From the NCBI GenBank assembly GCA_041657425.1, contig JBBABY010000009.1, forward strand, positions 1 through 32,000: 32,000 nucleotides of DNA. Direction: 5' to 3'. Below, in pieces: positions 2,190 to 28,745 of this stretch (position 1 is its first letter; each line of letters starts with the position of its first letter). The notes beneath the pieces are model-generated. The model did no database searches, was not told the DNA's origin, and worked only from the letters and a program-made list of their open reading frames with translations. The translations under genes were made by a program, and so were the position numbers. This stretch comes from an archaeon. GTDB lineage: Archaea > Iainarchaeota > Iainarchaeia > Iainarchaeales > CSSED10-239.

Positions 2190-2546
2190 ATGAGTGAAAA
2201 GGTAACAGAACCTTCAAAAGTAATAGCACCTTCAGCAGAGATGATTGCTGAACTCAAGAATAGGTATGGAGTGCTCTTTAAGGTTTCATACAACAGTTCA
2301 AGCAACTATCTTATTCGTCCAATCACCAGGGCAGAATACAAAGACGTGGTCGCAGTTATCGAAACCGTCGATGCTAAGCTCCGCCCTGAACTTCACGATG
2401 AGAACGTGGTTAAGTTAGGCGTCGTATGGCCCACATTGCCGCCCGAGTTCTTCACCACGAGTGCTGCTGGACAAGTTCCCAATCTAGCTCTACAGATTAT
2501 GGAACGCTCTGGCTTCTCGAACAACGTGGATGTCACGGAAGTATAA
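2190..2546 (+). CDS. tail assembly chaperone-like protein, short paralog (118 aa)
   Basis: AGGAGG (2176-2181) lies 8 nt before the ATG. It is a small protein sitting between the tube-like and tape-measure-like genes, the canonical chaperone slot. It is a clear paralog of the N-terminal half of the next gene. Confidence 0.55.
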   Translation: MSEKVTEPSKVIAPSAEMIAELKNRYGVLFKVSYNSSSNYLIRPITRAEYKDVVAVIETVDAKLRPELHDENVVKLGVVWPTLPPEFFTTSAAGQVPNLALQIMERSGFSNNVDVTEV

Positions 2547-2571
2547 ATCCCTTCCTGCCATGGTCTTCACT

Positions 2572-2608
2572 GGGGCTAGGGTCTTATGGGCCCTGGCCCC
2601 TTTTATTT
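2572..2608 (+). terminator. intrinsic (rho-independent) terminator-like hairpin plus T-tract between the two chaperone paralogs
   Basis: GGGGCTAGGGTC (2572-2583) pairs with GGGCCCTGGCCCC (2589-2600). The stem is 12 bp (9 GC, 1 AT, 2 GU) with loop TTATG, followed immediately by TTTTATTT (2601-2608). Confidence 0.6.
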
Positions 2609-2618
2609 AGAGGGGCTT

Positions 2619-3260
2619 ATGATAGAAGTAGACTTAAAGCGTAAGTATGGTAGGGTCTTCCGAGCCGTTCTCCCATCAAAGACAGTCTTGTACTTCAGAT
2701 TACTAAGCAAGACTGAGTATGATATGTTTGCGCGGCTGCACCCTTCCATGGAAGCTGACATTCCCTTCGAAGCAGAAGAGTATGTTATTAATACTGCTGT
2801 TGTATATCCAAGCATTCAGGAGCTAGATCTGCACTGTGGAGCTACAGAGCTCAAAGCTGTAGTTCCTCACATTATAGTGGCCTCAGGATTCTCAGATCTC
2901 GAAACCTTCTTAGCTTCGCTAGCCGAGAAGAGAGAAGAGATGGGCCTGCTTAGTGAGCAGATTATAGCTACTATCATGAGGGGTATGCCAGCGTATCGTC
3001 GCGAAGATATCCAGAAGTTGAACTATGAAGAGATAGCTCATCTCCTAGCGCTAACTGAAATCATTACTGGCGAGATGCTTAACATTGGTGATGTCCAAGA
3101 AGATACAGCTAATCCGTTATACCAAGCCAATGCTAAACCTAAAGCTCCCAGAGTGGCTATGCCAGACATAGCCCATATGAGTGAAAGTGAAAAGGCCGTA
3201 GCCGAGAAGCTTAGACAAAAAGGACTAGAGGCTCTCTCCGCTATTCGTGCCAGAAGGTAA
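2619..3260 (+). CDS. tail assembly chaperone-like protein, long paralog (213 aa) with basic C-terminal extension
   Basis: ATG 2619 is preceded by AGAGGGG (2610-2615). The track's ATG at 2586 sits in the hairpin loop and has no SD. The N-terminal half parallels the previous gene: DLKRKYGRVFRAV / ELKNRYGVLFKV, SKTEYDMF / TRAEYKDV, VVYPSI / VVWPTL, IIVASGFS / QIMERSGFS. About 100 extra residues end in KPKAPRV...RQKGLEALSAIRARR. Stop is TAA 3258-3260. Confidence 0.55.
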   Translation: MIEVDLKRKYGRVFRAVLPSKTVLYFRLLSKTEYDMFARLHPSMEADIPFEAEEYVINTAVVYPSIQELDLHCGATELKAVVPHIIVASGFSDLETFLASLAEKREEMGLLSEQIIATIMRGMPAYRREDIQKLNYEEIAHLLALTEIITGEMLNIGDVQEDTANPLYQANAKPKAPRVAMPDIAHMSESEKAVAEKLRQKGLEALSAIRARR

Positions 3261-6200: not shown

Positions 6201-8358
6201 TGACTGGATGCCAGGACCTGAGTACTTCCAGAACTTTAGGATAGGGGATCCATACTCGAAGGTAGACTTCGGCGAGATCCGACTGCCAGGTAGTGGCTAT
6301 GAAAAGTTCTATACGCCAGGAGCTGGCGTTGTTGAGGCTGCCCGTAGTCTAGGCACCCAGAACCTAGGGATAGCTAATACATATCCTGAGTACTCAATGT
6401 TGGATATCTATAGAATCACAGGAGACGTAGCACCATGGAGCCCACAATACAGGTACGCTAAAGCATACCTTGGCTCTATGTCGAAGGCAGGACTTCTAAC
6501 TCCAGAGGGTGAAGAAGAACGTAAGAAGGTTGCCAAGGAAGTACCCCTACGTAAGCGCAGATGGGATTTCACAGAGCGCAAATTCTCTGAGGGCGATCTA
6601 CAAAATGAACTGCTTACTGTATCATCCTATCTTGGCAATGGCGCCTTTGAAGCTGAAGGCCAAAGGGGAATCTTTAAGCTAGCAGGGATTAAGAGTTTAA
6701 CTCCCGAAGGTGAGGAAAGACTAAAGTCTAACTTAACACCTGGAAGCACGATTCTTGCTCAGACCCTAGCTGACGAACGCTATAGGACTAAGGACCTTAC
6801 GGTCCCAACAACCCCAGTTATAATTGGTGGTCTCAATAGAGGACTTGTAACATCTGGTGAAGCAGAGTTCGATAAGACTGGACCCGGCGAAGTATTCGCC
6901 CCTATGAATCTTAAGGTCCAGTACAATCCCATCGAGCGAATGGTTGGAGGCCTCTGGGAGGATATAAGTCACGCAGACGTTCCCTATCTCCAAACGAAGT
7001 TCATGCACAAACGTACCGCTCTTGAAGAGTGGGAAAGAACTATGGTCTACGGTAGAGACTCGTCCTCGTGGTCGAGACCTATCCGAGACTTCGTCGAACC
7101 CCTAATACATAAAATGATGGGCGGAGGCATTGTTGGCTCTGCCCTACTAGGTGGTGGCCTAGGTTGGTTTACAGGTGCTACCCGTAGTGCAGAAACAGAA
7201 GTGGGTGCTTCTACTATAGGCGCTCTAGCAGAGGCTGCGGGCAAGGCTGGCAAGGTATCTCTAGCGGGTAATCGTACTAGGATACTAACTGCGGGGGTAG
7301 GAGCTATCATTGGTGGAGGCCTCGCCTTGGCAGGAGGAGTACTTGGACTTGGCGGGTCAAATTGGGTACCAGAGTATAGAAAGAAGATCTGGGATACGGA
7401 ACAGTACTTTGATACTCTAGAGTATCTTAAGTACCAAGGGCTCTACGCTAAGTCTCGTAGGGAATCTATGCAGCAGACGGGCATGGATCCCGAAGAGCTT
7501 ATGCAATCTATTGAGGCATCACGTCGTGCTAGAAAGACTATCGCCGATCAACTCAAAACTGAGTATGGAGACCTGGGCCTACAAAGAAAGAAGACCGAGA
7601 GCGCCAAGGAGATAGAAAGCATTAAGAAGCGCAGAGATCTTGTAGCTGCCCAAATTGAAAGACTAAGTTATCAGAAGTGGACAGAGGATGCTGCACTAGA
7701 TGCTGTTGCTGGGACCCCAGTTGGTAGAGCTCTTGAGTATCGCAAGAGGGCTACATCAACTATGTATGGAGCGGACCCGAGGGGAGACTTTGCCAGTATC
7801 ATGAGGGCCCTCCCCAATAAGCAACGTGAGTTCTTCCAGGCCTTTGTACAGGCGCCCCAAGAAGAGCGTTCTAGAATCCTTGAGACCACACCTCTTGGGA
7901 TGCGCCGCTTCCTTGAAGCCAAGTGGGGCATGGATGTAGAAGCCAATCCAGACCTAACAAGTTACTTCCAGGAGAACTACCTGCCAGCAGAGAACTGGGT
8001 AGGATGGCATCCTGCGGTTAATCTGGATGATGTCAAGCTTAAGGTAGCGCGCCAAGAAGGCCTAGATATACATGACTTTAACCTATGGGAGTCATCGGAG
8101 CGTGAGCTAAGTAGAAAACCCTATGTGCCCCTAATCGACCCATTCACAGCCAGTGACGATCAGGGTCAGATGAAGAGCCAGATAGCCGACATCATAGGCG
8201 GTCAAGGTTATAATAACTATGATATCAGTGTTACTCCCTATGCTTCTGATAGAGAGGGAATCAACTTGAACTTTGATGTCAAGTATGCTACCCAGCCTGA
8301 CGCTGTCGAATACATACGTAAAAACCTAGGCAACCTAATGAGCCCCGCATATGGCTAA
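3265..8358 (+). CDS. giant tape-measure-like / ejection protein (1697 aa) with multiple glycine-zipper hydrophobic segments
   Basis: GTG 3265 has GAAGG 7 nt upstream; an alternative start is ATG 3283. It sits directly after the chaperone pair. Gly/Ala-rich hydrophobic segments occur at aa ~10-130, ~600-690 and ~1285-1365. Examples are LGLGGLAGLAGL, YGALGMALVAGGAYATG, GLVAGMAASAALGFGG, GGGIVGSALLGGGLGWFTGA and AIIGGGLALAGGVLGLGG. A charged coiled-coil-like stretch lies at aa ~1400-1470. I recognised no enzymatic motif. Confidence 0.5.
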   Translation: MPLPPSMLRNATLGLGGLAGLAGLRSDTASDFNDQGSKDTPTSVAFAAGIGATTTAAVMLGVNYAMKRASTPALQGRYGALGMALVAGGAYATGRIFSRYNPAKMYEGDQRSALPGVLQGVMGLGALWYGGKAISPYLARSVANFDMQARPWFSAVGRAFDETQIDFKNLPNSVRDFKNAFTQNLQATREMYAHNQLEGPPLTKYLSLYSNIINSISDPAMRGTMLEGANQQLLKRHSLADLNVINGIRSATFSDLLHHSGLPVDSPVMGKARTVANLLYDKVMFDKLGLGKGVMFDTRSKKILNLNAYTPGSMLKSGLLGFEKNFTIPVAGFNPISILRPREISGYFSQGHQFHYFPAGSKLGPKATEVAGPMGAYFSAGRLYDVATRRDTGIKGSLVKAGRWVEGEVRHHQETRFGETMRMFHGEGLGKEASPGFINIGHTQVRAPDTLIKKALAFIEAGPQTGFPQVQSVPERFIDVVKNKKGISGVANAIKESMRMLLGETDEAAAYMSPYRKLGSSTNVFPTMAAGKGSSFAFLADKDIPGAAAFFLTNRPTRLLESLGVGGFDPRTTRTATDVIKKLVLYRFLPVYLAWKSLQFTNDMSNAALGIGPLEAGASLFAGANVGMAYMRDILGITGMAQYLEELMPGFITASGPSLARGIGLPILGGTKFGPKGLVAGMAASAALGFGGDITKTGTEKADEYFGDARVPLKQGRWWMFGSTPFEGGKVKEFIPNWYQRVMSRYQYTDVQYGSELKYWSQYLNPWYMSEYHYYDRPYPLATTGIEEIPFIGPALSSIAPTRSMHGDEFSTGGVLGTGIGPGSGLGLGGGPATAMLMPTISGPTAVYPQETVGGYIAGTPEEEGIAGGVNPMLGGLPPDAASLPNGLGGTAGEEIYRMTEYMGLYGFGIGAIKEQLTGSQDFFTGPQIQSARYMDSAERSYWEQNVGDPFGYTEMFRRFLPHRRRQIDQVNPIPNTMPDWMPGPEYFQNFRIGDPYSKVDFGEIRLPGSGYEKFYTPGAGVVEAARSLGTQNLGIANTYPEYSMLDIYRITGDVAPWSPQYRYAKAYLGSMSKAGLLTPEGEEERKKVAKEVPLRKRRWDFTERKFSEGDLQNELLTVSSYLGNGAFEAEGQRGIFKLAGIKSLTPEGEERLKSNLTPGSTILAQTLADERYRTKDLTVPTTPVIIGGLNRGLVTSGEAEFDKTGPGEVFAPMNLKVQYNPIERMVGGLWEDISHADVPYLQTKFMHKRTALEEWERTMVYGRDSSSWSRPIRDFVEPLIHKMMGGGIVGSALLGGGLGWFTGATRSAETEVGASTIGALAEAAGKAGKVSLAGNRTRILTAGVGAIIGGGLALAGGVLGLGGSNWVPEYRKKIWDTEQYFDTLEYLKYQGLYAKSRRESMQQTGMDPEELMQSIEASRRARKTIADQLKTEYGDLGLQRKKTESAKEIESIKKRRDLVAAQIERLSYQKWTEDAALDAVAGTPVGRALEYRKRATSTMYGADPRGDFASIMRALPNKQREFFQAFVQAPQEERSRILETTPLGMRRFLEAKWGMDVEANPDLTSYFQENYLPAENWVGWHPAVNLDDVKLKVARQEGLDIHDFNLWESSERELSRKPYVPLIDPFTASDDQGQMKSQIADIIGGQGYNNYDISVTPYASDREGINLNFDVKYATQPDAVEYIRKNLGNLMSPAYG

Positions 8359-11300
8359 TATGGAACACTATAACCGTCTCCGCGGTATGTTCAAATTTGA
8401 CCTGCCCAAGTATGAGGTTAGGGGTAGTGGTCTCGTTTGGCATAATGCCTCACTTATTAGTCCACTCGATATACGCATAGGCACGGGCAAGGGTGGAGAA
8501 GCCGTTTACCAAGAACTTGGTGACTGGCTAAATAAGCACGCCGCTCGACTGCTAAGTCTCCCCAAGGCGAGACAGCAGGAGTTAGTTCAAGAACTGGGCT
8601 CAACCGCAGAACAGATGCTAGACATCGCTCCTAAGATAACAGGAGCTGGTGGTGTTTATGTTCCTATGTCCTCTGCCTTACGTAAGTCTATGGCTATTGA
8701 CCTCCCTGCTTATAAGGGATATAAGAGCCTAGAGGGACAGAGGGGAACAACTAGTGTAGCCAAGATGGGCTACTATAGAAATTGGGGAAGACGAGTAGAA
8801 GCTGCAGGCGGCGCCTTTGGTGGACTATCTGATGACAACATTGGTAACTTCATATACGCTAGAGAAGATATCGGCCGCTATATGGCTGGCCAAGGATCAT
8901 ACCTTAGCTCAAGAAAGCCTACAACTCTTGAGAACTACCTGGGCCTAAGTGGTAGTACGCCGGGCGCTAGACTAACAGCTGACGCTCTTTATACGGCAGA
9001 GCGCGTGCTCCATCTGCAAGACCAGCAGAAGTTATTCACACATGGTTCTGCATCGAGTGCAATGCACGATCGCGTAGCCGCCCACCTATATAATACAGGT
9101 AAGATTGTCCAAGCTACTATCCCTAACGCTCAGGCCCTCCGAAGCAGCAGTGTGGCTGGCCTACTACTAGGCGGACCTGCCATCGGTCGTAAGGGTATCT
9201 TTGGAGATATTAAAGCACAGCGCGCTTCCGTAGAAGCCTTTAGTCTGACTGCCCTTGGGCGCTGGTACGATCCCGCAGGCCTTAATGAATTAATGCAGAA
9301 AGTACATACACCTGGAGCTGTTCTCAGCTCGGAAGAGTATGTACGTCTAAAGGCATCGACACCTGGGCGAGCCGAAGATCTGATTAGTGTACTTGATAAG
9401 TTCAGACTTGAGCCGAATGCCGGAGGTGTCAGCCCGGAAGTACGGGCCTACGAGAGCCTGGGGAAGAGAGTCCCGCTCGAAGTCTCTGTGGCTGCAGCCG
9501 CCCATGAAGGTGATGCCCTTAATCTAACTATGCAAGTTAGCCACGGTCTTGTAGAAGGCAACAAGGTTTCCTTCCTCGACAGGAAAGCACGTCTTGGAAC
9601 TCTTGAAGATGCTGGCTTTGATGCTGCCCTAGGAGATATCGTGTCAGCTGGAGGCTTGTCTGGTAGAGAAGCTGCTGCCGTTAGAGGGGCAGATGTAATC
9701 CTTCCTCCTATCAGTGCAAAGGGCGGAGATGTACAGCGTATTATGCGCCAGTGGTGGGAACCATATCTCAACGCCCTAACCATCCCAGAAGCTGGGGTCT
9801 TTACTGAAGAACAAACTGTAGCCAACTTAGATACCATCGCTGCTGGATTTGAGAAGACTTTAGGAACCAAGGCCAAAGTTATCCGTCTAGCTAACGGCCA
9901 GAGAAGACTGGAAGTTCCGGGTGTAACAGCATTCAATATGAAAGCCACCCGCTATCTACATGACCTACTAGTACAAAGCGGACAAGGCGCCGTTGCTGAA
10001 GACATCGCTTCTCTTAGAAGACTGCCTGTTAATATGCACGCCTTACCACAAGAGTTGTTCTCTAAGATTGGCCCCGAGGTTGGTGGCGTAAGCGCCCTAG
10101 AGGCTCTTGGGTTCCAGATCGAGGGCTACGGTGGCCTAGCCCAGCAAGTAATGAATGCAACTGCACCTCGTGGCGGTAAACGTAAAGCTATGATGAACGA
10201 GATGCATTATATAAGCGCATCCTATTCTGGTATCCCAGGATATACAACTCCCACTAACAAGATCTCCTATAAGGATCTTGATTATAGAATGATACAAACC
10301 TTCGCTCCTGGCCGTGGTGGTATTGTGCCCCAGCCTCCCATAGGGGAGGGTAACCCTCTATCAATCCTGTACCACGAGAAGATGGCTAAAGCAACTAAGC
10401 CTACGGGCAGTGAGTTTAGTGCTTACTATATGCCAACAGAAGTAGAGCTACCTGTTGATGTAGTAACCAAGAGTGGTAAAACAACTAATAAGATCCTATT
10501 CACTAGTGCTAACTTAAAGAATATAAGAGGCGGTGCTGCCGGGACAGTGCGCAGCAGCGAACAACTACGCATAGAGCAAGCAATACTAGCCAACATAGCA
10601 GGCACAGGTGGGAACCTAAGCCAGCCAGAACTGCAACGCTTAGTTACCAGATATGAGAGTGAGCTTGAGACTGTTATAACTGGCAAGGAAGGCTTATACA
10701 ATAAAGCTATCCTAAAGGGTAGATCTTATGGTGCCCAAGGTTCACTAGGCTTCTTATCCGACGAAGCTGAGCGGGGACTACTAGGTCAGTTCGAAGAGGG
10801 AGCCGATGCCCTTGGTGGCATGGTTGGCGTCACAGAAGAACAGTTCATTAAGCTACGTGGTCTAAACGCTTTAAGGAAGCTCCCTGCAGAACAACGTCGT
10901 AGCGCCATAGAGTCCATGGTTCGCCAAGGCGAGTACATGATCTCTAATAGAAACCCATCTCCTGCTGGTATGGCTGTAGCCCGCGTTGGTATTATAGACT
11001 ATCTATCCGATAGGACCAAGGCAGGTATGATCACTTATAATGATCAGATCCTTGAGTCTGCAGGTATGGGCCTGTTCAAGAGGGCTGACATCGACGGAGA
11101 TATGGTTCGTATTATCAGTGGCTTCTCCAGAACGAGGAGCGCCCGCACGTCAACATATGACAAGCTAGCCAAGGACGCTTTTGTCTCTATGCTGCCCCAG
11201 TACCGGGCCGCTCGTACAGAAGCTGAGTCTAAGATGGTATCTGCTGCCGAAAAGATCGGTAGCCTAAGTTCCTTTGAAGAGTTTATGGGATCTGAAGAAG

Positions 11301-12352
11301 TAGCTTCGGCTGCTGGAAGAACACAACTTGACCTTCTAGATGATATGTTACAGAAGAAGTTTACTACGGGCCCCGCCCATAGTCTAATGATCGGTGTTGC
11401 TGAAGGAGCCCGGTATAACAAGCTTGGCGATGAAGAAGCCAACAGGTTAACTAAGGTTGCCAGATATATCTACCAAGAAGGCGGTCTGGATATTAAGCAA
11501 CAGAACGTTGTAGGAGGAGCCGTTTCTAACCTACAGGCTGCAATGTGGGATCGTGATCTCACAATGGGAGAGAGAGTTAATTTAACAAGGCCTCTACTTG
11601 AGGGCATTAATAAGAAACATCCTGAACTTGGTGGAGTAGACGATACAACTATCACCAATATGTTTAAGTCCTATGATGCTGGTAATGCCCAAGGCATGAT
11701 TGCTAAGAGTTACTCCAAGCTAGTAGGCCGTAGTAAGTCCTCGTTGGCTCAGCCAATGGCCTTTAGGCGAGCACCTGATTACGCTATGGGTCCTGCTGAA
11801 GTGGTAGATTCAACTCTTATGGGTATGATGAGAAATGCAGGGTCTATCCAGAGCGTAGGACAGAACATAGGCGAGAAGAACGCAGCAGTAGCTGCTGCCG
11901 TAGAGCAACCACGCACATGGGAAGGAAAGGCTAGCGAAGCCATCGACTGGATAGGTAAGCGGGTATCTGATTATGGCGAGGGCTTGAAAGCTGGCAAGGG
12001 ATGGGGTAAACTAGCTATCGGGGCCGGAGTCCTAGCCGGGATTGGACTATCTCTACGTCGTCCACCTAGGATGGATACTATGGAGGCTACCCAGGAATCT
12101 GACCAGCCAGTAGTTATCCCCAGAAGACAGCGCAATCTAAGTGTAATGACTAAGAGTCAGTATGATGTTAGAATAAAGCTGAGAGATGCCCAAAGGCAGG
12201 ACAACCGCGCCTTTATCAACCTCTCCGAAGCTATAGCCGGTAAGTTCAGCCAACCCTCTAACGTCCGCATGCATATTCGAGATGACTCAAACGATGTCAA
12301 CTATGACAAGGTGTTTCGCGACGCCTATAACCAAGAAATGAGAGCCGGATAA
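8351..12352 (+). CDS. giant virion/ejection protein (1333 aa) with a candidate two-barrel RNA polymerase catalytic signature
   Basis: ATG 8351 overlaps the upstream stop by 8 nt; an alternative start is ATG 8360. NRNPSPAGM (aa 866-874) and ADIDGDMV (aa 912-919) match the NRxP...DxDGD pattern of beta-prime-type DPBB domains. A C-terminal hydrophobic segment GKLAIGAGVLAGIGLSL lies at nt ~12003-12053. The stop is tandem, TAA TAA at 12350-12355. Confidence 0.45.
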   Translation: MANMEHYNRLRGMFKFDLPKYEVRGSGLVWHNASLISPLDIRIGTGKGGEAVYQELGDWLNKHAARLLSLPKARQQELVQELGSTAEQMLDIAPKITGAGGVYVPMSSALRKSMAIDLPAYKGYKSLEGQRGTTSVAKMGYYRNWGRRVEAAGGAFGGLSDDNIGNFIYAREDIGRYMAGQGSYLSSRKPTTLENYLGLSGSTPGARLTADALYTAERVLHLQDQQKLFTHGSASSAMHDRVAAHLYNTGKIVQATIPNAQALRSSSVAGLLLGGPAIGRKGIFGDIKAQRASVEAFSLTALGRWYDPAGLNELMQKVHTPGAVLSSEEYVRLKASTPGRAEDLISVLDKFRLEPNAGGVSPEVRAYESLGKRVPLEVSVAAAAHEGDALNLTMQVSHGLVEGNKVSFLDRKARLGTLEDAGFDAALGDIVSAGGLSGREAAAVRGADVILPPISAKGGDVQRIMRQWWEPYLNALTIPEAGVFTEEQTVANLDTIAAGFEKTLGTKAKVIRLANGQRRLEVPGVTAFNMKATRYLHDLLVQSGQGAVAEDIASLRRLPVNMHALPQELFSKIGPEVGGVSALEALGFQIEGYGGLAQQVMNATAPRGGKRKAMMNEMHYISASYSGIPGYTTPTNKISYKDLDYRMIQTFAPGRGGIVPQPPIGEGNPLSILYHEKMAKATKPTGSEFSAYYMPTEVELPVDVVTKSGKTTNKILFTSANLKNIRGGAAGTVRSSEQLRIEQAILANIAGTGGNLSQPELQRLVTRYESELETVITGKEGLYNKAILKGRSYGAQGSLGFLSDEAERGLLGQFEEGADALGGMVGVTEEQFIKLRGLNALRKLPAEQRRSAIESMVRQGEYMISNRNPSPAGMAVARVGIIDYLSDRTKAGMITYNDQILESAGMGLFKRADIDGDMVRIISGFSRTRSARTSTYDKLAKDAFVSMLPQYRAARTEAESKMVSAAEKIGSLSSFEEFMGSEEVASAAGRTQLDLLDDMLQKKFTTGPAHSLMIGVAEGARYNKLGDEEANRLTKVARYIYQEGGLDIKQQNVVGGAVSNLQAAMWDRDLTMGERVNLTRPLLEGINKKHPELGGVDDTTITNMFKSYDAGNAQGMIAKSYSKLVGRSKSSLAQPMAFRRAPDYAMGPAEVVDSTLMGMMRNAGSIQSVGQNIGEKNAAVAAAVEQPRTWEGKASEAIDWIGKRVSDYGEGLKAGKGWGKLAIGAGVLAGIGLSLRRPPRMDTMEATQESDQPVVIPRRQRNLSVMTKSQYDVRIKLRDAQRQDNRAFINLSEAIAGKFSQPSNVRMHIRDDSNDVNYDKVFRDAYNQEMRAG
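10946..11101 (+). other. candidate beta-prime-like double-psi beta-barrel active-site region (NRxP ... DxDGD)
   Basis: AAT AGA AAC CCA at 10946-10957 encodes N866-R-N-P. GAC ATC GAC GGA GAT at 11087-11101 encodes D913-I-D915-G-D917. The spacing of about 46 aa is comparable to NRAPTLH...NADFDGD in bacterial beta-prime and NPxLHPGD...DLDGD in cellular RdRPs. Confidence 0.4.
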
Positions 12353-12356
12353 TAAT

Positions 12357-15300
12357 ATGGCAGATAAAAGATCACAAGAAGATATAGCCGTTGGATCTTG
12401 GACTAATGAAGCATCTAACTTGCCAGGCGCAACGCGCCTTGGTTACATCTGGCTCAACGTCCCTCCCATCTCTATTTCATACGACCTGAATACCAATAAC
12501 GATACCATGATGACCATGCGTCAGCAAGGCCCTAGTATTATTAAGACGGGTCGTACTATGATGACGTTCGAAATGCAGCTTGTGTTTACCGGCCGCCACA
12601 TGATCAATACAAAGCTAGCGCCTATACTGGCCATGATCCGCCGCTCCCCATATACTACAATCTCTAACGAGACTGTAGCTAAGATCCTTGGAGAAACATC
12701 TCAGGATGCAGATAGCCTTAAGGGTCTTGTAGAAATACCTATTGTGGTTAGTGGCTATACACTCAATACCGAACCCTCCCTTCCCGACACTATAACTATG
12801 CACCTGGCATTCATGATCTACAACTATACATCCTTCCTTAAGAGTTGGGTATATCTTAAGCAGGGTGTGCGCAGAGATAGCAATGGTCGCGAGACAGCTT
12901 TTAGAGAAGACGGTGTCCCCATCATTGAACCAGCGTTATCTGCTGAACATAGTAACCTATACACCCAGTGGTGCGATAGCCTAATCAAGTCTAAGGATGA
13001 TATTAGCAGTTTCATGTTCGATGGAGAAGTTGCGCCCACAGAGATTGGTGCATCTAAAAAGACTCGGGCAGGTATAAAGAATGAGTCGTCCTATACCGAT
13101 CTACAAACTAGGGTTGATATAAAGGACCGCGCGGTCCTACGCAATGGAGATGCAGTTATCAAGGTTGGTGACTCCTTTCCTAATACCCCTACCAATGTAA
13201 CCATTGGGTACCATGTCTATGAACTAAGTGATGCTCTTAATCTAGATCTGGGTGCCTATCAGAGTAAGAGGACCGGGGAGTGGATCTGGACAAAGGAAGA
13301 CATGAGGCGGGATATCGTTGGCTTCATTAAGGATGAGTTTGATGTCACGGTTGATGCTAAGGAAAATGTAGAGACCCTAGTTGTTAAGTACCGTGAGTAT
13401 CTAGAAGAACTCCCTGTATACAATGTTGCCTTCAAGTACATTAAGAAGGTATCTATTACTAATACTAGCTATCGTGTAATCGACGGCATGTCATTAAGGC
13501 GCTCAGTGCCTCTATCTGTTCTACCCCTGGTGTCATCTCCCGTTCCTACGGTACAGTATCTGGGCGGTGCCACCACAGACATCAGCTTTTCCATTACCTC
13601 AACCAGCGAAGACGATGTCAGAAAGTTAACAACTATCTTCGCAAAGGTAGAAGAGAGCTGTCGGAACAAAATTCACCACAGTGGATCCCAGTTGATTTAC
13701 GTTGAATCTGATTTAGCCAACTTGAATGGCACATTTGTCATCACGACCAAAGGTATCAACGCCCAGTCAGTTCCCTCGCTTCCTGGGACCTTTGTCATGA
13801 ATGTCAGTCTATCCGAACAGACTGAGGTCTCTAGGTCTCTTGTAATGCCAGAACAGTATAGTACAGAGAGACGCAAAGCCATTATTAAGGACATCCTGAC
13901 CTATTATAAGAAGTGGGATTCGTCCAAGATCATGGCTGGCGACCGCTATATATTCGATAAGCAGAAGCCATCTTATATCGAAACCATCCTTATCCCGTCA
14001 CTTGTTAGGGTAATACGTAATGGATATCTGCGTTATCTTAAAGAGCAGAACTTTGGTGTTGCTACTCCAGGAGAGGACTTCTTAAGTGCTGCAGATCTAA
14101 TGTCTATCCAGCCGGAGACCAGTAGTAATGTTATGCAAGTCCAGGATGAACGTAGGGCAGTTAACCTAAGCCAAGAAATGCAAATAGGAATAGAGTACGA
14201 AACAAGTACAGGTTTCTGGACAACTGAAAAGATGCTTGGTTCATCAAGACTAACATCCTTCATGAATCCTATCTGGAAGATAGTAACCGGCCAACTAGGA
14301 CATCATGAGTTGATAGCCACCAGCGCTAGGAACAACCGCGTTTGGACAGGCCTAATAAGGTGGCTTATTACTCTACTGCCACCGGGATCTGAAAAAGATC
14401 AGCACGGCCAGATGGTAACTAATGAACAAAAGCAGATTATGGGTGCAGTGGAAGCTATTAACAAGTCCGACTCTAGAAGGTTAGCTCTCCTGCTGCGTAG
14501 CCCCAAACTATTAGATTGGGAGCAGCGCATTATGGCTGGGGAAGATGTAGCCCTCTTCGAGTCTTCCAAGACCATTAATGCTGACGCCCAGATAGACTTC
14601 GACTCCTACAAGAAGTATGAGTATCTCTATCCCAAGGACAAAGATGGCAAGCCTAGCTTTGATGACAAGAAGGCTGTAGAGGACTTCGAGTCCAAGAAGA
14701 TTCTATCCTGCTATCCAGATCTTGGGATCCCTTTCAGGTATGCCTGTGTTAATAGCAAGGGCGAGCAACTCTATACCTATGTCAATGTGAAAGAAGACAA
14801 TACCAAGGTTCGTGTGAAGATGGGGAATAGTTCTATTATGAGACTTGATGGGACGCCCAGCCCAGCAACATCGCTAACTATAGATCTGATTGCTAGAGTA
14901 GGCGGCGCTAGAACAAGACTAAAACAGCCTACAGACTATACGGTTTCAGGTGTCAAGGTTTCCTTTACAACTGTCCCTTCAAGAAGTGACTATGAGATTG
15001 AGATCAACTACTCGACTAGAAAGCCCGTTACTCTTCTAGCTACCAATCCAGCCTTCTATCTAGCCGACCAGACATTGCTAGACTCGCAGGAGACACAGAA
15101 GCTCCTTGCTGAAAAACCTGCTGATATCAATGCTAAGCATGATACCCTGGGGTTCAATAGCCCTGTGACCATTGAGAGGATCTTCGGGACAACCGTAGTT
15201 CCATCTAATGTCATCTCCAATACATGGAGTACAAGCGGCGTTAATCAATTCAGTGCTAGCCTGTCAATGGAAGACCCTGCCGGCAACAAGGTTTCAGCAG

Positions 15301-18300
15301 ACCAGTCGCAATCCGACAAGTCTATTAAGAAGGCTAGAGAAGATATAGATAAACTAAACGCTTCTCGTAGGACCACAGGTGATCTATCTAAGGTTCCACA
15401 GTCTCCTAATATAAGCAATATTGGAACCATGAAGAGTCTTGATGACATCGTTGCCACCCCAAGGATCATGGGGCAGCTAACAGCTTATGGCCAGGAGACT
15501 TCAGATACTGTTATCGCTGAAGCTCAGCTTGAACATAAGATCTTCAAGTCAACCTTTAGAGACTACAATGCTGATATTGAGAAGAGCGTGGGCGATATTG
15601 TTGCGGAGGCCCGCAAAGACATCTATGCCAATCCTAAGTATTACTCTATGGATAGGGCTTATCCTACCTACAAGTTATACTTCAGGGAAGAGAATGCCCC
15701 ACAGTGGTTCTTGTTCGACAACTTCTTCGACTATAGATCACTAGAATCTATAAGGTTCTGGAGAGAGAAAGCTTCTCCGGTAGCCCGTTGTCATATCGTT
15801 CTTAATGACACTAACGGAACCCTAACTGATATTAAGGCCCTACTAGCCAAGGAATCATTCAATCCTGAGACTAGGAATACTAACGAGAGTCTAACAGATG
15901 CATCTGGCGAGAAGCCAATGCAGACACTATTCCTAACTCCAGGTACACAAATTCAGCTCAAGGTTGGATATGCAACTGACCCGGCCAACCTAACAACCCT
16001 GTTCAACGGGTTTATCACAGACGTATCTCCTGGTGAGAAGTACGAGATCATCTGCGACAGTTATGGCCTAGAGTTACTCAACGACGCCGATATGGGAATG
16101 CTAACAGGCTGGCTATGCCCGCCCAAGGCATTCATCTGGATGATGCTTCTAGACCCCAAGGTCAAGCACTTGGGAACACTATTCACACCATCCACACTGC
16201 CCACAGGCCTAAGCGATTGGTTCGATGGCCCTAGCTTCGACGACAACATCTACATTAATGAGCGCCATGAGCCTGATAAGATCCGTCTATTCCAGGCATA
16301 CAACGCTGATGGAATGAAGAAGTGGGACGTTCTTCAGGACATCGCTGCGGCACATCCTGGATTCATATGCCAGACAGCTGTCTTCGACGATCGCGAGACG
16401 GTCTTCTTTGGGCGCCCCGACTTCAACTATGCCTATACATCCGATCTAGGTACAGTTAGCTACTACCCAGATCTAAGCAATGAAGAGATAACTAAGGCCA
16501 TGAAGGCTGTTGCTGGAGACTATTTATCTGGAGCAGCTCCTCAAACTGCCTTTGGGAAGAGCTACGTAGCTAGCTCCCAGAGCCAGGATATCGCTAACTA
16601 CAACCAGAACAAAGAGAACATCGAGAACGCCCGCAAGCTTCTCGATGAGATTGGCAAGGATCCTAGCCAAGTAATTGGGTTTAACTATATGCAGTGGATG
16701 CCCTTACAGAAAGCCATCGATTCAACCATCCAGTTGTATCATGATAATCTATACAACGACTATCAAAATAACACCAAGGCTGGTGTGTTTGAACTAGTCA
16801 AAGAATACTGTAGATGCGTAGATCAGCTAAGTCAATTAGCTGCAGATATACAAACCCATGGTAACGTAGAGTATGACCTATTTGGTGGAGCCATGACGCC
16901 CGAGGCCAAGAAGAAGAGGGACGAACGCCGTAGGGCTACTATGGTTACCAAGCCCGCGGACATCTCTCTCTTCGATGTAACCGAAGCATCGAATAGAGCC
17001 CGACTAGATACCGAAGGCACAAAGGTCAAAGGCTTAGACGGTCGCAACCAGATCCTCGATAAGAGACTGGCCGTACTATTTGACAAGCTTAAGGTCTATG
17101 CTCAGCAGAATGGCTGGGTCATTGAGCTACGCGAGGGCTATAGAAATAAGCAAGATCAGGAAGCGGCTCTAACCGCTGGCTATAGCAACGCCATCTACGG
17201 CTTATCTCCTCATAGCTACGGTTTGGCTTTCGATATTGCGCTTCTATATAACAGCAGCTATTATCCTGGAGACGAAGCACTCCCCGGCGAAGTGGCAACT
17301 ATCTTTGAAACGCTAGGAGACTATGCCGAACTGTCTCTAGGTATGACATGGGGTGGTAGGTTCTCAAATCTCTATGACCCTCCTCACTTCGAGTTAAAAG
17401 GCTGGACTTCTGATAAGGCATATACAGATGCCAAAGCCATGGCAAAGTCAGCAAGAGCCGAAGAGCTCAAGCAGGCTCAGGCTAGCTCTAAGAAGAAGAT
17501 GGACGAGATTACCAAGCAAGGCAAAGCCGAAGGCGACGATAAGAGCAACCTTGATACAGCAACTATAGAACAAGGTGCTGGTAAGATTATTGAGTATAAT
17601 CCGGAAGACTATATCCGTGTGGCAAGACTAGAGAAAGAAGTTAATCTCCTTGGCTTAGCAGAGGCAGACTATCTGCCCATAGTTAGCGCAGGGGAGTCTT
17701 CGCTGCCATGGTATGACCTTCTCTTTGATGCGGGCACTAGCTCTGTAATTAAGGGATCCTCTGTTACATCTTTCGTTCCTCTAGTCTTCTTCCAACAGGA
17801 CTCAGATGTATGCCAACTTGTATACCAGGGCACAGGCGCCTGGGACTCTATCAAAGCTTTATCAACAGGCATGGATACAGGAGTAGTACAAGGTACGCCT
17901 AACTTAGTTGACCTGCAGAATGCAGCCAAAGCCCTTGAAGACAATATGAACCAGCAAGGTTCATCCGATGACAGAGACAAGCTTCTAGAACAAATGCGTG
18001 GCGCAGGAGCTTCAAGTAAGAAGGCTCAGTTTGCTGATACCTCAAAGAAGCTACAGGTCTTGAAGTTCTGGGATACAGATTCCAGTGATGTTGTAAAGGC
18101 AACCTCTAATGTCTATCAGAAGATAGGCATGCAATCTCCAATGGTTATCTACTTATGGAGAAGGATCCATGAGATCCTGGCCAAGCTAAAGGCCATTAGT
18201 GATCTACGGAACTCAGAGACTGCCCAGCTAAGTAACCTGTTTGAATGGCAGGGAAAGCTAAAGGTAGCCGTTGCGAATGCCTATTCGTCCAAGACTACCG

Positions 18301-20012: not shown

Positions 20013-20816
20013 ATGAGCCAGACCATATCCCAGAAGATGCGTAATAACAGCAGGCTAGAATCAGACAGGAATCCAAAAGATATCCCTGTCTTTATAGACT
20101 ATATCAACGTGGACCAATCTATTGCTACTGTACGCATTGTAGGAAGTGATGAGAATAAGAGTCTAGAGCTACCTGTGATCATGGTAGACCCAGACTATAT
20201 CCGTGGCCCCATTAATGTCTCTAACTATAACGGAGTACTCGAAGGCGACCCCAAAGCTCCAACAGGCGTACGCCTTATCAAGAAGGCAACCGTCGAGCCT
20301 AATATTCGACACGGTGTATCACAGGCACTATATGGATCTGCTAGCGGCAGAGCCCAAGAACCTGTAGATAGGGTAGTCGGCAGGACTGCCAAGAACGCTA
20401 CCCAGAAACAGAACCATGAGAATTTACCTAATGGGCAGATGATAGTCATCAAGCCGCCTAGGCAATTGCCTGTTCATTATAAGGGTAGAAACCCCTTTGT
20501 TAATGATTCCCCTGCAGATCTACTAGATGCCGCCGGGGCCCATATCTTAGTCTCAGAAGATGAGGCCAGGCTAATTGCTGACCCTGGGAATGGTATAGTT
20601 GTCAACTCAAGATCTGGTATCAATATGGCAGGGAAGGTAAATATAGGCACATCCATTCAGGATGTTAGGATCGGCGGCGCCTGGAGGTTCAATCCTATGC
20701 TTCAATTCCAAGTACCATCTACCGCGGTTACCCCTATCCCTACCCTGCTTTATGACTACCCAGGTAAGGATATACTCGGTGGAGTAGATAAGTATATAGA
20801 TGCAATGAATAGCTAA
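20013..20816 (+). CDS. baseplate central spike-like protein (P2 gpV / Mu gp45 position), 267 aa
   Basis: AAGGAG (20002-20007) lies 5 nt before the ATG. The N-terminal segment IPVFIDYINVDQSIATVRIVGSDENKSLELPVIM looks like a gpV-type OB-fold. The C-terminal part has a short-strand pattern (ILVSEDEARLIADPGNGIVVNSRSGINMAGKVNIG). It sits between the hub and the gp25-like gene. The stop is TAA followed by an in-frame TGA. Confidence 0.4.
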   Translation: MSQTISQKMRNNSRLESDRNPKDIPVFIDYINVDQSIATVRIVGSDENKSLELPVIMVDPDYIRGPINVSNYNGVLEGDPKAPTGVRLIKKATVEPNIRHGVSQALYGSASGRAQEPVDRVVGRTAKNATQKQNHENLPNGQMIVIKPPRQLPVHYKGRNPFVNDSPADLLDAAGAHILVSEDEARLIADPGNGIVVNSRSGINMAGKVNIGTSIQDVRIGGAWRFNPMLQFQVPSTAVTPIPTLLYDYPGKDILGGVDKYIDAMNS

Positions 20817-20825
20817 TGAATACCT

Positions 20826-20834
20826 TGTTATAAT
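20826..20834 (+). promoter_or_regulatory. possible extended -10 promoter element (TGTTATAAT) in the 38-nt spike/gp25 intergenic gap
   Basis: TG (20826-27), n, then TATAAT (20829-34) is a perfect extended -10. The -35 is poor (ATGAAT, 20805-10). GGAG (20844-47) and ATG 20855 follow. Confidence 0.3.
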
Positions 20835-20854
20835 CCATATAGCGGAGTCCCCTA

Positions 20855-21271
20855 ATGCCCGGCCTATATACCACCCAAGACATATACATGACTGATAGCG
20901 GTGACTTCGCAGTCACTGAGAACGGTGACCTACGTTCATCCGATATGGATGAGACCGTCCGCCAAGAGGCTATTCTTACTCTGTATACGCCAGTCGGCGA
21001 GTTCGACTCCTTCCCTATTTATGGTTCTAAGCTAATGGACTTCATAGGTGAACCTAACTCCAGAGACAATGCTGCGCTTATGAGGAAAGAGGTTGTCCGA
21101 GCACTAACCCAACTAGGGTCATTCTCGGCCGATGATATAGAGGTAACTATAACCCCCATTGGTATCGACGACGTTCTTATCAACCTAGACATACAGAATG
21201 TACTAGGCATTGGGGAACAAAGCCTAACCATTGACTTTAACTATATCAAGGGCATCCAGATAACCAATTAA
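20855..21271 (+). CDS. baseplate wedge protein, gp25 / GPW / XkdS (DUF2634)-like, 138 aa
   Basis: GGAG lies 7 nt upstream of the ATG. The N-terminal DIYMTDSGDFAVTENGDL, followed by ETVRQEAILTLYTPVGEFDSFPIYGSKLMDFIGEPNS...MRKEVVRALTQ, matches the conserved gp25/W core (Q.i...L.TP.GE....P.YGS.L.d.ig.p). Its size and its position before a J-like gene fit. Confidence 0.7.
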   Translation: MPGLYTTQDIYMTDSGDFAVTENGDLRSSDMDETVRQEAILTLYTPVGEFDSFPIYGSKLMDFIGEPNSRDNAALMRKEVVRALTQLGSFSADDIEVTITPIGIDDVLINLDIQNVLGIGEQSLTIDFNYIKGIQITN

Positions 21272-21281
21272 GGATAGGCAT

Positions 21282-22538
21282 ATGGCAAACGTAACAATCA
21301 AAGATGAAGACCAGATGAGTACAGAAGCTCTTCGGCTTCTGCAAGACAATACTCAGATCACAAACGTCTCAGATGGCACCCTCGCCAGAGCCTTGATCCG
21401 TGCTATTAGTGATATGCATGGAAAACAATATCGTATCCTTACGCGTGAACTAGCCAATGGATTCTTAAGTACGGCAACTGGTGTATACCTTGATATGTTT
21501 GGCGTCCTATTAAGTACGCCTAGAGGTTCCAGTACTCTAGCCGGTAGAGAGAATGTACAGAGATTCTACTCCACTGATGGCCTGACACCTATAGCGAGCC
21601 TAGTAGGAGCCGGAAGTCTAGGCGGAGTTATTCCAGCTGGGACTATCGTTCAGTCTGGGAATGGCTCTATTCGCTACGAAGTTGTCTTCAATGTTCCCTT
21701 TAGCTCAACAGACCTTCAGGTTATGGCAACCGTTAGAGCTGTAACAGAAGGTGTAACTTCTAATGTTGGTACCAATATCCTCACCACGCATTCGCTAAGT
21801 GTTACGGGCTTATCTACCACAAACATTCTTGGTATCTCCAATGGCACAGATATACAAGGCGATAGTGAATATCGCTACATGCTATCCAAAGCGATCACAG
21901 CAGCAGAAGCCGCAAATGAGATCTCTATTAGACTGGCTGCCTTATCAGTAGCAGGCGTATCAGATGTAAGACTTCTTCCCTATTTCCATGGCGTTGGAAC
22001 ATTCACTGTTCTAGTAATAGGAACAACTCCAGTGGTATCAGCTCAAGTCCTAGAGGGTGTACGAGCTGCGGTATCTGGAGTAACTGCTCTCGGGGAGTTC
22101 TTCTCAGTCCGTGGCCCGAGGTATATAGGAACAGAGCTGCAGGCCAAGCTCATCTTTAGAGATGATGCCGATGAGACTGCAAGAACTAGCATAGCTGCTA
22201 GGGTAACTGATGTGCTATACGAATATATAAATAACCTACCCCTAGGCGAAGGTTTGGTATGGAATGAAATTATACAACGGATCATGGAGACTTCGCCACT
22301 GATCCACGATATTGATGATGATCCTGCCTCCGCCTCATGCCTCCGAGTGTGGACATGGACTCCGACTATTATGGATATCATAAACAATGTAGAGACATAT
22401 CACAGAGTCAAAGAAGAGCTCAAAGAGCCTACTCGTAACTACGAAGCTTATTCGGATGATAAGATGATCGTAGAGCAAGACCTTCAGGGTTTTGTTCATG
22501 AAGCCAACTTCACGCCTATACGCATTACCTGGGAGTAA
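21282..22538 (+). CDS. baseplate J / T4 gp6 / Mu gp47-like wedge protein, 418 aa
   Basis: AAGGA lies upstream of the ATG. The N-terminal TLARALIRAISDMHGKQYRILTRELANGFLSTATGVYLDMFGVLLSTPR matches the baseplate-J pattern (...y..l......f..tA.g..Ld..g...g..R). The size and the canonical position after the gp25-like gene both fit. Confidence 0.65.
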   Translation: MANVTIKDEDQMSTEALRLLQDNTQITNVSDGTLARALIRAISDMHGKQYRILTRELANGFLSTATGVYLDMFGVLLSTPRGSSTLAGRENVQRFYSTDGLTPIASLVGAGSLGGVIPAGTIVQSGNGSIRYEVVFNVPFSSTDLQVMATVRAVTEGVTSNVGTNILTTHSLSVTGLSTTNILGISNGTDIQGDSEYRYMLSKAITAAEAANEISIRLAALSVAGVSDVRLLPYFHGVGTFTVLVIGTTPVVSAQVLEGVRAAVSGVTALGEFFSVRGPRYIGTELQAKLIFRDDADETARTSIAARVTDVLYEYINNLPLGEGLVWNEIIQRIMETSPLIHDIDDDPASASCLRVWTWTPTIMDIINNVETYHRVKEELKEPTRNYEAYSDDKMIVEQDLQGFVHEANFTPIRITWE

Positions 22539-28373: not shown

Positions 28374-28385
28374 GGAGGAATTAAG

Positions 28386-28745
28386 ATGGCACTAAGTGGA
28401 AAGATTGTAAACACCTCAAGGGGTTCTAGCGGAAATCTACTCAGCGTAGCAGCTGGAAGTCGTGGCATTCTTCGGAATCTAAGAATAAACTCGACAGGAC
28501 ACGGTGCCGGAGACACTGTCTCTATAGCTTTTAATGTTGATGGAGTTGCCGGCGACTCGATCAATTTGTACACATATCCTACCGGCGGCTGGGACACAAT
28601 GCTCCCAGGCTTTAGTGGTGGCACGGGCGGCAATCTTACAGGTACAGCAATTAACATTCCGTTTAATAATGGGATTACTGTCCCGGTTGTTATATCCGGC
28701 TCTGTAACAGTTGAAGCGTCGTTCGACATTGTAGTCGAGTCTTAA
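28386..28745 (+). CDS. small Gly/Ser/Thr-rich beta protein of unknown function (119 aa), fibre-associated by position
   Basis: AGGAGG (28373-28378) lies 7 nt before the ATG, which is one of the best SD sites in the window. The stop is tandem TAA TAA (28743-28748). The mirror-image minus-strand ORF 28370..28729 has no SD. Confidence 0.65.
   Translation: MALSGKIVNTSRGSSGNLLSVAAGSRGILRNLRINSTGHGAGDTVSIAFNVDGVAGDSINLYTYPTGGWDTMLPGFSGGTGGNLTGTAINIPFNNGITVPVVISGSVTVEASFDIVVES

Follow-up and report, generated by a model that had tools for sequence, protein, structure and literature searches.

A conserved motif pair in the middle one of three giant genes

The stretch of DNA examined here, hereafter the window, comprises 32,000 nucleotides of contig JBBABY010000009.1 (assembly GCA_041657425.1) and carries the contractile-tail module of an uncultured phage that is known from metagenome contigs only: tube-like open reading frames (ORFs), two small ORFs, three giant ORFs, a gp25-like gene and a Baseplate_J gene (Table 1). 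The subject of this report is the second of the three giants, a product of 1333 residues (the target), for which an original prediction had proposed a two-barrel RNA polymerase (RNAP) carried in the virion and ejected with the DNA. The frame is open for all 1333 codons, an alternative gene call placing the start at M13 (1321 aa), and the two motifs on which the proposal was built lie exactly where it had put them. The motif NRNP occupies aa 866-869, within YMISNRNPSPAGMAVARVGII (aa 862-882; nt 10934-10996), R867-x-P869 being encoded by nt 10949-10957, while DIDGD occupies aa 913-917 (nt 11087-11101), within LFKRADIDGDMVRII (aa 908-922). The distance from R867 to D913 is 46 residues. The product as a whole is rich in Gly and Ala, with many predicted coil stretches and no continuous coiled coil.

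The pair had been judged unlikely to arise by chance, and shuffling of the target sequence (n=200,000) bears this out: D.DGD alone arises in 1.3% of shuffles, D.DGD with R.P 30-55 residues upstream in 0.10%, and D.DGD with NR.P upstream in 0.0055%. The RxP...DxDGD pair in the target is, therefore, real and non-random. It also contains the sole D.D.D among the three giant ORFs, the other two having none, and one further match of the D.D.D type (DIDDD) is held by the Baseplate_J ORF.

Relatives of the target are exceedingly rare. A word-indexed search of 5.8 billion clusters returned the target itself and nothing else, scanning viral, metagenome and genome collections for sequence patterns added no relatives, and tblastn against 50,697 phage records gave no match. 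An exhaustive phmmer search with aa 1-1200 against 1.84 billion representatives revealed one further protein, P0002, which is the sole homolog among ~15 billion proteins. The gene for P0002 is truncated by the start of a 4.8-kb contig, so that its 3' part remains, and a hub-like gene comes next downstream; the protein aligns with target aa 827-1333 at 34% identity. It keeps R867, P869, D913, D915, G916 and D917 (reading IRHP...DKDGD), and the chance of all six residues surviving is 6e-4 given the background rates at which each type of residue is conserved in this alignment. The conservation expected of a catalytic pair was thus found for the Arg, the Pro and the DxDGD loop, and not for the Asn of NRxP, since N866 is replaced by Ile. 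Identity between the two proteins is 46% over aa 862-922, 21% over aa 923-1212 and 59% over aa 1213-1333. Because aa 862-922 stand out against the segment that follows and retain all six motif residues, they form a constrained island, which, as far as a pairwise alignment can tell, is under functional constraint.

Table 1. Features of the tail module, of the target and of its counterparts in related phages; positions refer to the window unless a phage is named.
Feature	Position (nt)	Strand	Assignment or basis
Two small ORFs, slot of 0305phi8-36 tail chaperones gp143/gp144	2190..3260	+	Position only
Upstream giant ORF, 1697 aa	3265..8358	+	Homolog of 0305phi8-36 gp145 (virion structural protein)
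Target ORF, 1333 aa	8351..12352	+	Tape-measure slot; positional equivalent of 0305phi8-36 gp146
Target aa 726-814, weak likeness to ExoII part of MTATph1 DEDD domain	10526..10792	+	BLAST E=0.044; shuffle test
Target aa 862-922, conserved island with R867-x-P869 and D913-x-D-G-D917	10934..11116	+	46% identity to P0002; six-residue retention 6e-4
Target aa 1213-1333, C-terminal module: glycine-zipper hydrophobic segment (aa 1213-1236), then conserved tail	11987..12349	+	P0002 alignment
Downstream giant ORF, 2548 aa	12357..20003	+	Hub/tail-lysin homolog of 0305phi8-36 gp147; Peptidase_M15_4 domain
gp25/sheath-initiator-like baseplate ORF	20855..21271	+	
Baseplate_J ORF	21282..22538	+	
DEDD/RNase_T-type domain	MTATph1 15063-15812; 0305phi8-36 ~18074-19573		Pfam and alignment

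The tape-measure slot and the C-terminal module

By tblastn, the giants that flank the target match gp145 and gp147 of 0305phi8-36, a Bacillus jumbo phage, as well as the equivalent proteins of other Bacillus jumbo phages and of Moorella phage MTATph1. The upstream giant shares 29-31% identity over ~60% of its length with the Moorella and Bacillus jumbo phage proteins and lies directly 3' of the presumed tail-chaperone genes. In those phages the gene between the gp145-like and gp147-like giants is gp146 (0305phi8-36) or CDS0027 (MTATph1). The target, which stands between a gp145-like giant and a gp147-like hub/lysin, is the positional equivalent of gp146, and the setting given in the original prediction, with a giant ORF on one side, the hub on the other and gp25-like and J-like baseplate genes beyond, proved correct. 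Eight nucleotides at its ATG are shared with the end of the upstream ORF, stop codon included, and a gap of 4 nt separates its own stop from the next gene; it is translationally coupled to both neighbours.

The database record of gp146 reads "hypothetical tape measure protein" and reports its detection in virions by mass spectrometry; the tape-measure role was assigned from the length of the tail, and only its last 60 residues can be aligned with its BtI1 counterpart (Hardies et al., PMC2147016). BLASTP of the target against gp146 or CDS0027 likewise found no similarity besides weak C-terminal and internal patches. Fast divergence is typical of the tape-measure slot, and the target joins the gp146-type slot proteins as a near-orphan.

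The C-terminal module is the best-conserved part of the target, with 83% identity to P0002 across its hydrophobic segment and a conserved tail that reads QY.VRI..DAQ ... HIRDDS.DV.Y..VF.DAY. The glycine-rich hydrophobic segment, GKGWGKLAIGAGVLAGIGLSL (aa 1213-1233), had been described as terminal and as common to the neighbouring giants. It does recur in all three giants (aa 44-62 and 1339-1357 of the 1697-aa protein, aa 2452-2470 of the hub), but in the target it precedes the C-terminus by ~100 residues rather than forming the end. The module resembles the C-termini of gp146 and of MTATph1 CDS0031 (hhalign E=0.06 over 23 columns), a likeness that is suggestive only in view of its E-value. All three proteins have the same end architecture, namely a Gly-rich hydrophobic segment followed by [YM].V.[IV][KR] and by I.D[DN] at the extreme C-terminus. 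In MTATph1 the slot gene (12513-19869) is apparently split by an inserted transposase gene (16539-18026), and the gp146-like C-terminal module (hydrophobic segment, MRVRVRG, NIQDNS) sits in the separate downstream CDS0031.

The motif pair measured against known two-barrel polymerases

A direct precedent for the polymerase hypothesis is provided by gp96 of the Thermus siphovirus P23-45, a tape measure with an N-terminal two-barrel virion RNAP (Chaban et al. 2024, PMC10770324). This enzyme, which is otherwise devoid of detectable polymerase similarity, came to light when virion proteins were scanned for DxDxD; its activity and structure have been demonstrated, and once ejected it transcribes the genes that enter first (PMC10770324). 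The hypothesis thereby becomes more plausible and less novel, and the statement of novelty in the original prediction, which placed such enzymes in crAss-like podoviruses and in no phage with a gp25/J/I baseplate, is outdated.

The target matches the filter of the published survey of two-barrel RNAPs, [RK]xP x{20,100} DxDxD (supplement of PMC10770324). The loop of the first double-psi beta-barrel (DPBB-A) is represented by D913-I-D-G-D917 and by DKDGD in P0002, and the RxP, R867-N-P869, whose Rpb1 equivalents are R446/P448, precedes it by 46 aa and is kept in P0002. In verified single-chain enzymes the corresponding spacing is 38-45 aa; that of QDE-1, from R962 to D1007, matches the 45-46 of the target (PMC2919709).

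The context of the loop differs. In four single-chain families, those of gp96, gp64, gp66 and orf99, it is preceded by (T/G)G-x-D (STGVD, PTGAD, KTGSD or MGGAD), where the target has KRAD and P0002 has LHGD, with a conserved S.G.G lying 5 residues further upstream.

Profile comparisons were made with three polymerase families: gp96 fragments from P23-45, stolb2 and TSP4 (alignment A4), gp64-type non-virion RNAPs (A5), and 22 orf99/YonO-like proteins, all with PF05183 (A6). Neither a whole-region profile (target aa 500-1333 with P0002) nor a full-length target query matched any of them. The power of such comparisons is limited, as controls among the families themselves show: gp96 against gp64 gave E=2.5e-6, gp96 against orf99 gave E=0.011, confined to DPBB-A, and gp64 against orf99 failed. 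A profile restricted to the motif region of the target and P0002 (A3) found its best local match at the catalytic site in each of the three families (E 0.039-0.096), which is to be expected, as the region was chosen for those very residues. For this reason the six motif columns were held fixed, all other columns were shuffled, and hhalign was rerun.

In this test the observed score was reached by 26 of 160 shuffles against the gp96 family, 56 of 160 against gp64 and 49 of 160 against orf99; no polymerase similarity past the motif residues rises above shuffles in these three families. The verified polymerases behave differently, passing in six of seven comparisons. For gp96 none of 100 shuffles reached the score against gp64 or against orf99, and for gp64 none of 100 did so against gp96 or orf99. 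Even the very divergent phi14:2 gp66 passes in two of three (0/100 against gp96, 2/100 against gp64, 29/100 against orf99). Of the proteins tested, only the target lacks any similarity outside the motif that these alignments can register.

The remainder of the enzyme was sought as well. In these polymerases a second barrel (DPBB-B), N-terminal to DPBB-A, contributes two basic residues and an Asp. No colinear hhalign match to it was seen between target aa 1-860 and the gp96, gp64 or orf99 families, P0002 being truncated in this region, and no motif that pairs K..KG with a hydrophobic strand was found in the target. GRKGIFGD (aa 279-286) and KGRSYGAQGSLGF (aa 789-801), which had been put forward as beta-like-barrel motifs, are present in the sequence and gained no support from hhalign in that role, nor did TKSGKTTNKILF or TKAKVIRL. 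Similarly, the bridge helix and the trigger loop, which lie C-terminal to DPBB-A, were not matched in register by a profile of aa 925-1110, whichever of the three families was compared. By-eye assignments of QKKFTTG (bridge helix) and GGLDIKQ (trigger loop), guided by the structure-based alignments in the supplement of PMC10770324, were not reproduced by hhalign. Further by-eye resemblances, GE.hI.NR.P..P.G and SGIPGY/YQGIPGW with gp64 and N.Q...S.G with gp96, were unsupported by permutation and independent hhalign tests.

Searches of Pfam, PHROGs and NCBIfam with the whole target and its sub-regions returned no matches up to E=10, RNA_pol_Rpb1_2 and RdRP included. In addition, phmmer and hmmsearch with the whole target and the motif-region profile against 177,635 PDB sequences retrieved no polymerase at E<=10. 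A calcium-binding EF-hand or FG-GAP reading of DIDGD was also considered and set aside, since the loop fits neither DxDxDG nor DxDGDG. Phosphohexomutases carry a DxDGDR metal loop, and such loops occur in unrelated folds; membership of that family was rejected for want of a Pfam match.

Structure prediction was of little help in this respect. AlphaFold2 models of the target with P0002 reached a mean pLDDT (predicted local distance difference test) of 33 for aa 500-1333 and 49 for aa 790-960, a confidence that is too low because the alignment holds only two sequences. In the smaller model a strand-strand-helix unit precedes DIDGD, which itself sits at a strand-to-strand turn, an arrangement compatible with many folds, and the larger model is mostly helical after aa ~737. 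Foldseek of the small, low-confidence model against the PDB returned no polymerase, and none of its matches reached E<=0.001; those to gyrase and topoisomerase helices were discarded as meaningless.

Exonuclease-like cargo in related slot proteins

The counterparts of the target carry recognisable enzyme-like domains. Residues 962-1065 of MTATph1 CDS0027 match Pfam RNase_T (PF00929) at E=1.5e-6, with the motifs LDLETTT, GQNVVGFD and HEALTD, and the same region aligns at E=7e-6 with gp146, in which LDIETTGL and LAGQNV (LAGQNVADAD) are found; gp146 itself has no Pfam match for the exonuclease-like domain. Target aa 726-814, which lie just 5' of the island, score 56 against the ExoII part of the MTATph1 domain, compared with 35.3+-5.6 for shuffles (4/1000 reaching the observed score), the region having been chosen post hoc. 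The shared pattern is EQ..LANI..GG..LQRLV.R.Y, followed by GFL in the target for GFD. The catalytic Asp is thereby replaced, and the target has no in-register D-x-E (ExoI) or H-x4-D (ExoIII) and no Pfam RNase_T match. This part of the target may be a degenerate remnant.

These findings suggest that the slot protein in this phage lineage is a carrier of variable enzyme-like cargo. We know of no previous description of enzyme-like cargo in the tape-measure-slot proteins of the lineage.

Interpretation of the island

The explanation that we favour, tentatively, is that the target occupies the tape-measure slot and is ejected, and that its conserved island probably binds metal and is not a polymerase. 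It would be a fast-evolving tail-lumen protein of a 0305phi8-36-like contractile-tailed phage. Like its positional equivalents, it consists of a long body of variable sequence, a glycine-rich segment of membrane type ~100 residues from the end, and a C-terminal module that is short and conserved. This module may dock the protein at the hub within the tail tube; contraction of the sheath would expel the protein ahead of the DNA, and the hydrophobic segment would then enter the host membrane and help to form a conduit for the DNA. Hydrophobic runs of the beta type lie on either side of the DxDGD loop, whose most likely role is to bind a divalent cation, and the island would be part of a lineage-specific cargo or structural domain. 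On present evidence the island is not recognisable as a two-barrel RNAP, an identity that the sequence comparisons which could be run disfavour.

Several points weigh against this explanation. The motif pair, its 46-aa spacing and its conservation are exactly what the published two-barrel RNAP filter seeks, and the P23-45 enzyme, fused to a tape measure, shows no other detectable polymerase similarity either (PMC10770324). The profile tests, built on two sequences, have limited power. Furthermore, cation binding by the loop is a role that we infer to be the most likely one, and hub docking and membrane insertion are drawn from position and hydrophobicity.

Of the alternatives, the one that survives best, though it appears rather unlikely, is a simple tape measure, or a scaffold in the tail lumen, that carries neither catalytic nor metal-binding cargo. 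The island would then be an assembly contact (with the tube, a chaperone or a neighbouring giant) and its match to the polymerase motif a coincidence. Occupancy of the tape-measure slot, the mostly helical low-confidence models after aa ~737, the lack of any enzyme family match and the chance-level polymerase similarity beyond the motif all agree with such a role. However, three Asp and a Gly retained in a homolog of only 34% identity point to a specific acidic site rather than to a generic contact; a Gly/Ala-rich product of this length with many coil stretches and no continuous coiled coil, and the enzyme-like cargo in slot proteins of relatives, are also at odds with it.

The polymerase hypothesis itself we regard as improbable. 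According to this proposal, the target is an extremely divergent single-chain two-barrel RNAP that resides in the tail lumen, is ejected with the DNA and transcribes the first-entering genes, R867/P869 and D913/D915/D917 being the invariants of DPBB-A. The motif is improbable by chance, the five invariant beta-prime-type residues and G916 are retained in the sole homolog, the 45-46 spacing is that of QDE-1 (PMC2919709), and the same motif led to gp96, an otherwise dissimilar virion RNAP that is joined to a tape measure (PMC10770324). The best local match of the motif-region profile at the catalytic site in three of three families, the position of DIDGD at a strand-strand turn in the low-confidence model and the nucleic-acid enzyme domains of related slot proteins point the same way. 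Yet the catalytic-site match follows from the selection of the region, and with the motif fixed the scores are ordinary among shuffles, in a test that gp96, gp64 and gp66 pass in six of seven comparisons. The (T/G)G-x-D context is missing, with ~5 extra residues before the loop, and N866 is not conserved. Neither a DPBB-B motif nor a colinear match in aa 1-860 was found, and no bridge helix or trigger loop was matched by the region after the motif. Finally, neither a Pfam RNA_pol_Rpb1_2/RdRP match, nor a PDB sequence match at E<=10, nor a polymerase among the Foldseek results for the low-confidence model was obtained.

Like the target, P23-45 gp96 is a giant slot protein with a membrane-type segment and an RxP...DxDGD pair conserved in relatives, lacks other obvious polymerase similarity and was found by the same motif-scanning logic. 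It differs in being a siphovirus protein of 5002 aa with the motif at 779-783, a 38-aa spacing and the TG-x-D context, whereas the target has no profile similarity beyond the fixed motif and no identifiable second barrel. The orf99/SPbeta YonO type shares with the target an RxP followed by DxDGD, in its own case 44 aa later (invariant R529, P531, D573, D575, G576, D577), and orf99 stems from the same phage lineage. It is, however, a non-structural early gene product of ~1200 aa that Pfam readily finds (PF05183 relatives), while the target has no Pfam match and chance-level similarity; in 0305phi8-36 this YonO-like RNAP is encoded away from the tail genes, in the early region (PMC2147016). The crAss-like phi14:2 gp66 is also a giant of highly divergent sequence, a virion protein ejected into the host, but it is packaged in a podovirus capsid, reads DFDID and passes the beyond-motif test against gp96 and gp64. 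Closest in setting are 0305phi8-36 gp146 and MTATph1 CDS0027/CDS0031, which share the slot between gp145-like and gp147-like giants and the same end architecture; gp146 and CDS0027 have DEDD exonuclease motifs and no DxDxD, the target has the DxDGD island, and overall similarity is not significant.

The least probable proposal, to which we attach little weight, is that the island is the active site of another Mg-dependent nucleic-acid enzyme (a nuclease, nucleotidyltransferase or primase-like enzyme) replacing or derived from the DEDD exonuclease cargo of gp146/CDS0027. The acidic loop is conserved, an RNase_T-type domain is present in the positional equivalent CDS0027 and shared with gp146, and aa 726-814 outscore 996 of 1000 shuffles when aligned with part of it. 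Against this, the target has lost the acidic residues of the exonuclease, no nuclease or transferase family is matched and the alignment (p=0.004) was picked post hoc.

Should the slot protein of a 0305phi8-36-like phage bear a two-barrel RNAP of which only the RxP...DxDGD core survives, independently of the P23-45 lineage, which we doubt, only one two-barrel RNAP delivered through a tail would have preceded it, and none from a myovirus. Delivery of transcription enzymes by the tail would then recur as a solution in phages of different tail types, and the tape-measure slot would serve as a general cargo bay for nucleic-acid enzymes, with an exonuclease in some relatives and a polymerase here. 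Such a finding would also widen the known sequence space of an ancient enzyme class and show how phages of this kind begin transcription. If the target is not a polymerase, it calls for caution, as the RxP...DxDGD filter would be insufficient alone even when combined with conservation in a homolog. In either case, the slot proteins of this lineage appear to bear interchangeable enzyme-like cargo, a DEDD exonuclease-like domain in some and an acidic loop in the target.

The wider locus

The window is part of a 77-kb metagenome contig (ENA k141_1148457). Since every gene on this contig from 22 kb onward is structural, the full genome is probably much larger and perhaps of jumbo size. A second, non-virion RNAP of the same phage was sought on the 77-kb contig and not found. 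A fourth giant ORF (at least 2579 aa) begins downstream of the genes for baseplate and fibres, at ~69.3 kb of the ENA contig, and continues past the end of the locus examined there (locus positions 20242-21974).

At the start of the window, paralogous ORFs at 41-532 and 1284-2171 match PHROG 9206, which is labelled 'major head protein'. Since their 0305phi8-36 counterparts (gp140/gp141) are noted as 'tail tube', the PHROG/GenBank name looks like a propagated misannotation. These two tube-like genes enclose a reverse-strand ORF of 245 aa (529-1266), an exception to the common direction of the structural operon; this ORF has no family match and is called on the ENA contig as a 232-aa gene. Further downstream, two 119-aa ORFs, at 28370-28729 on the reverse strand and 28386-28745 on the forward strand, overlap almost fully, and the ENA call takes the forward one.

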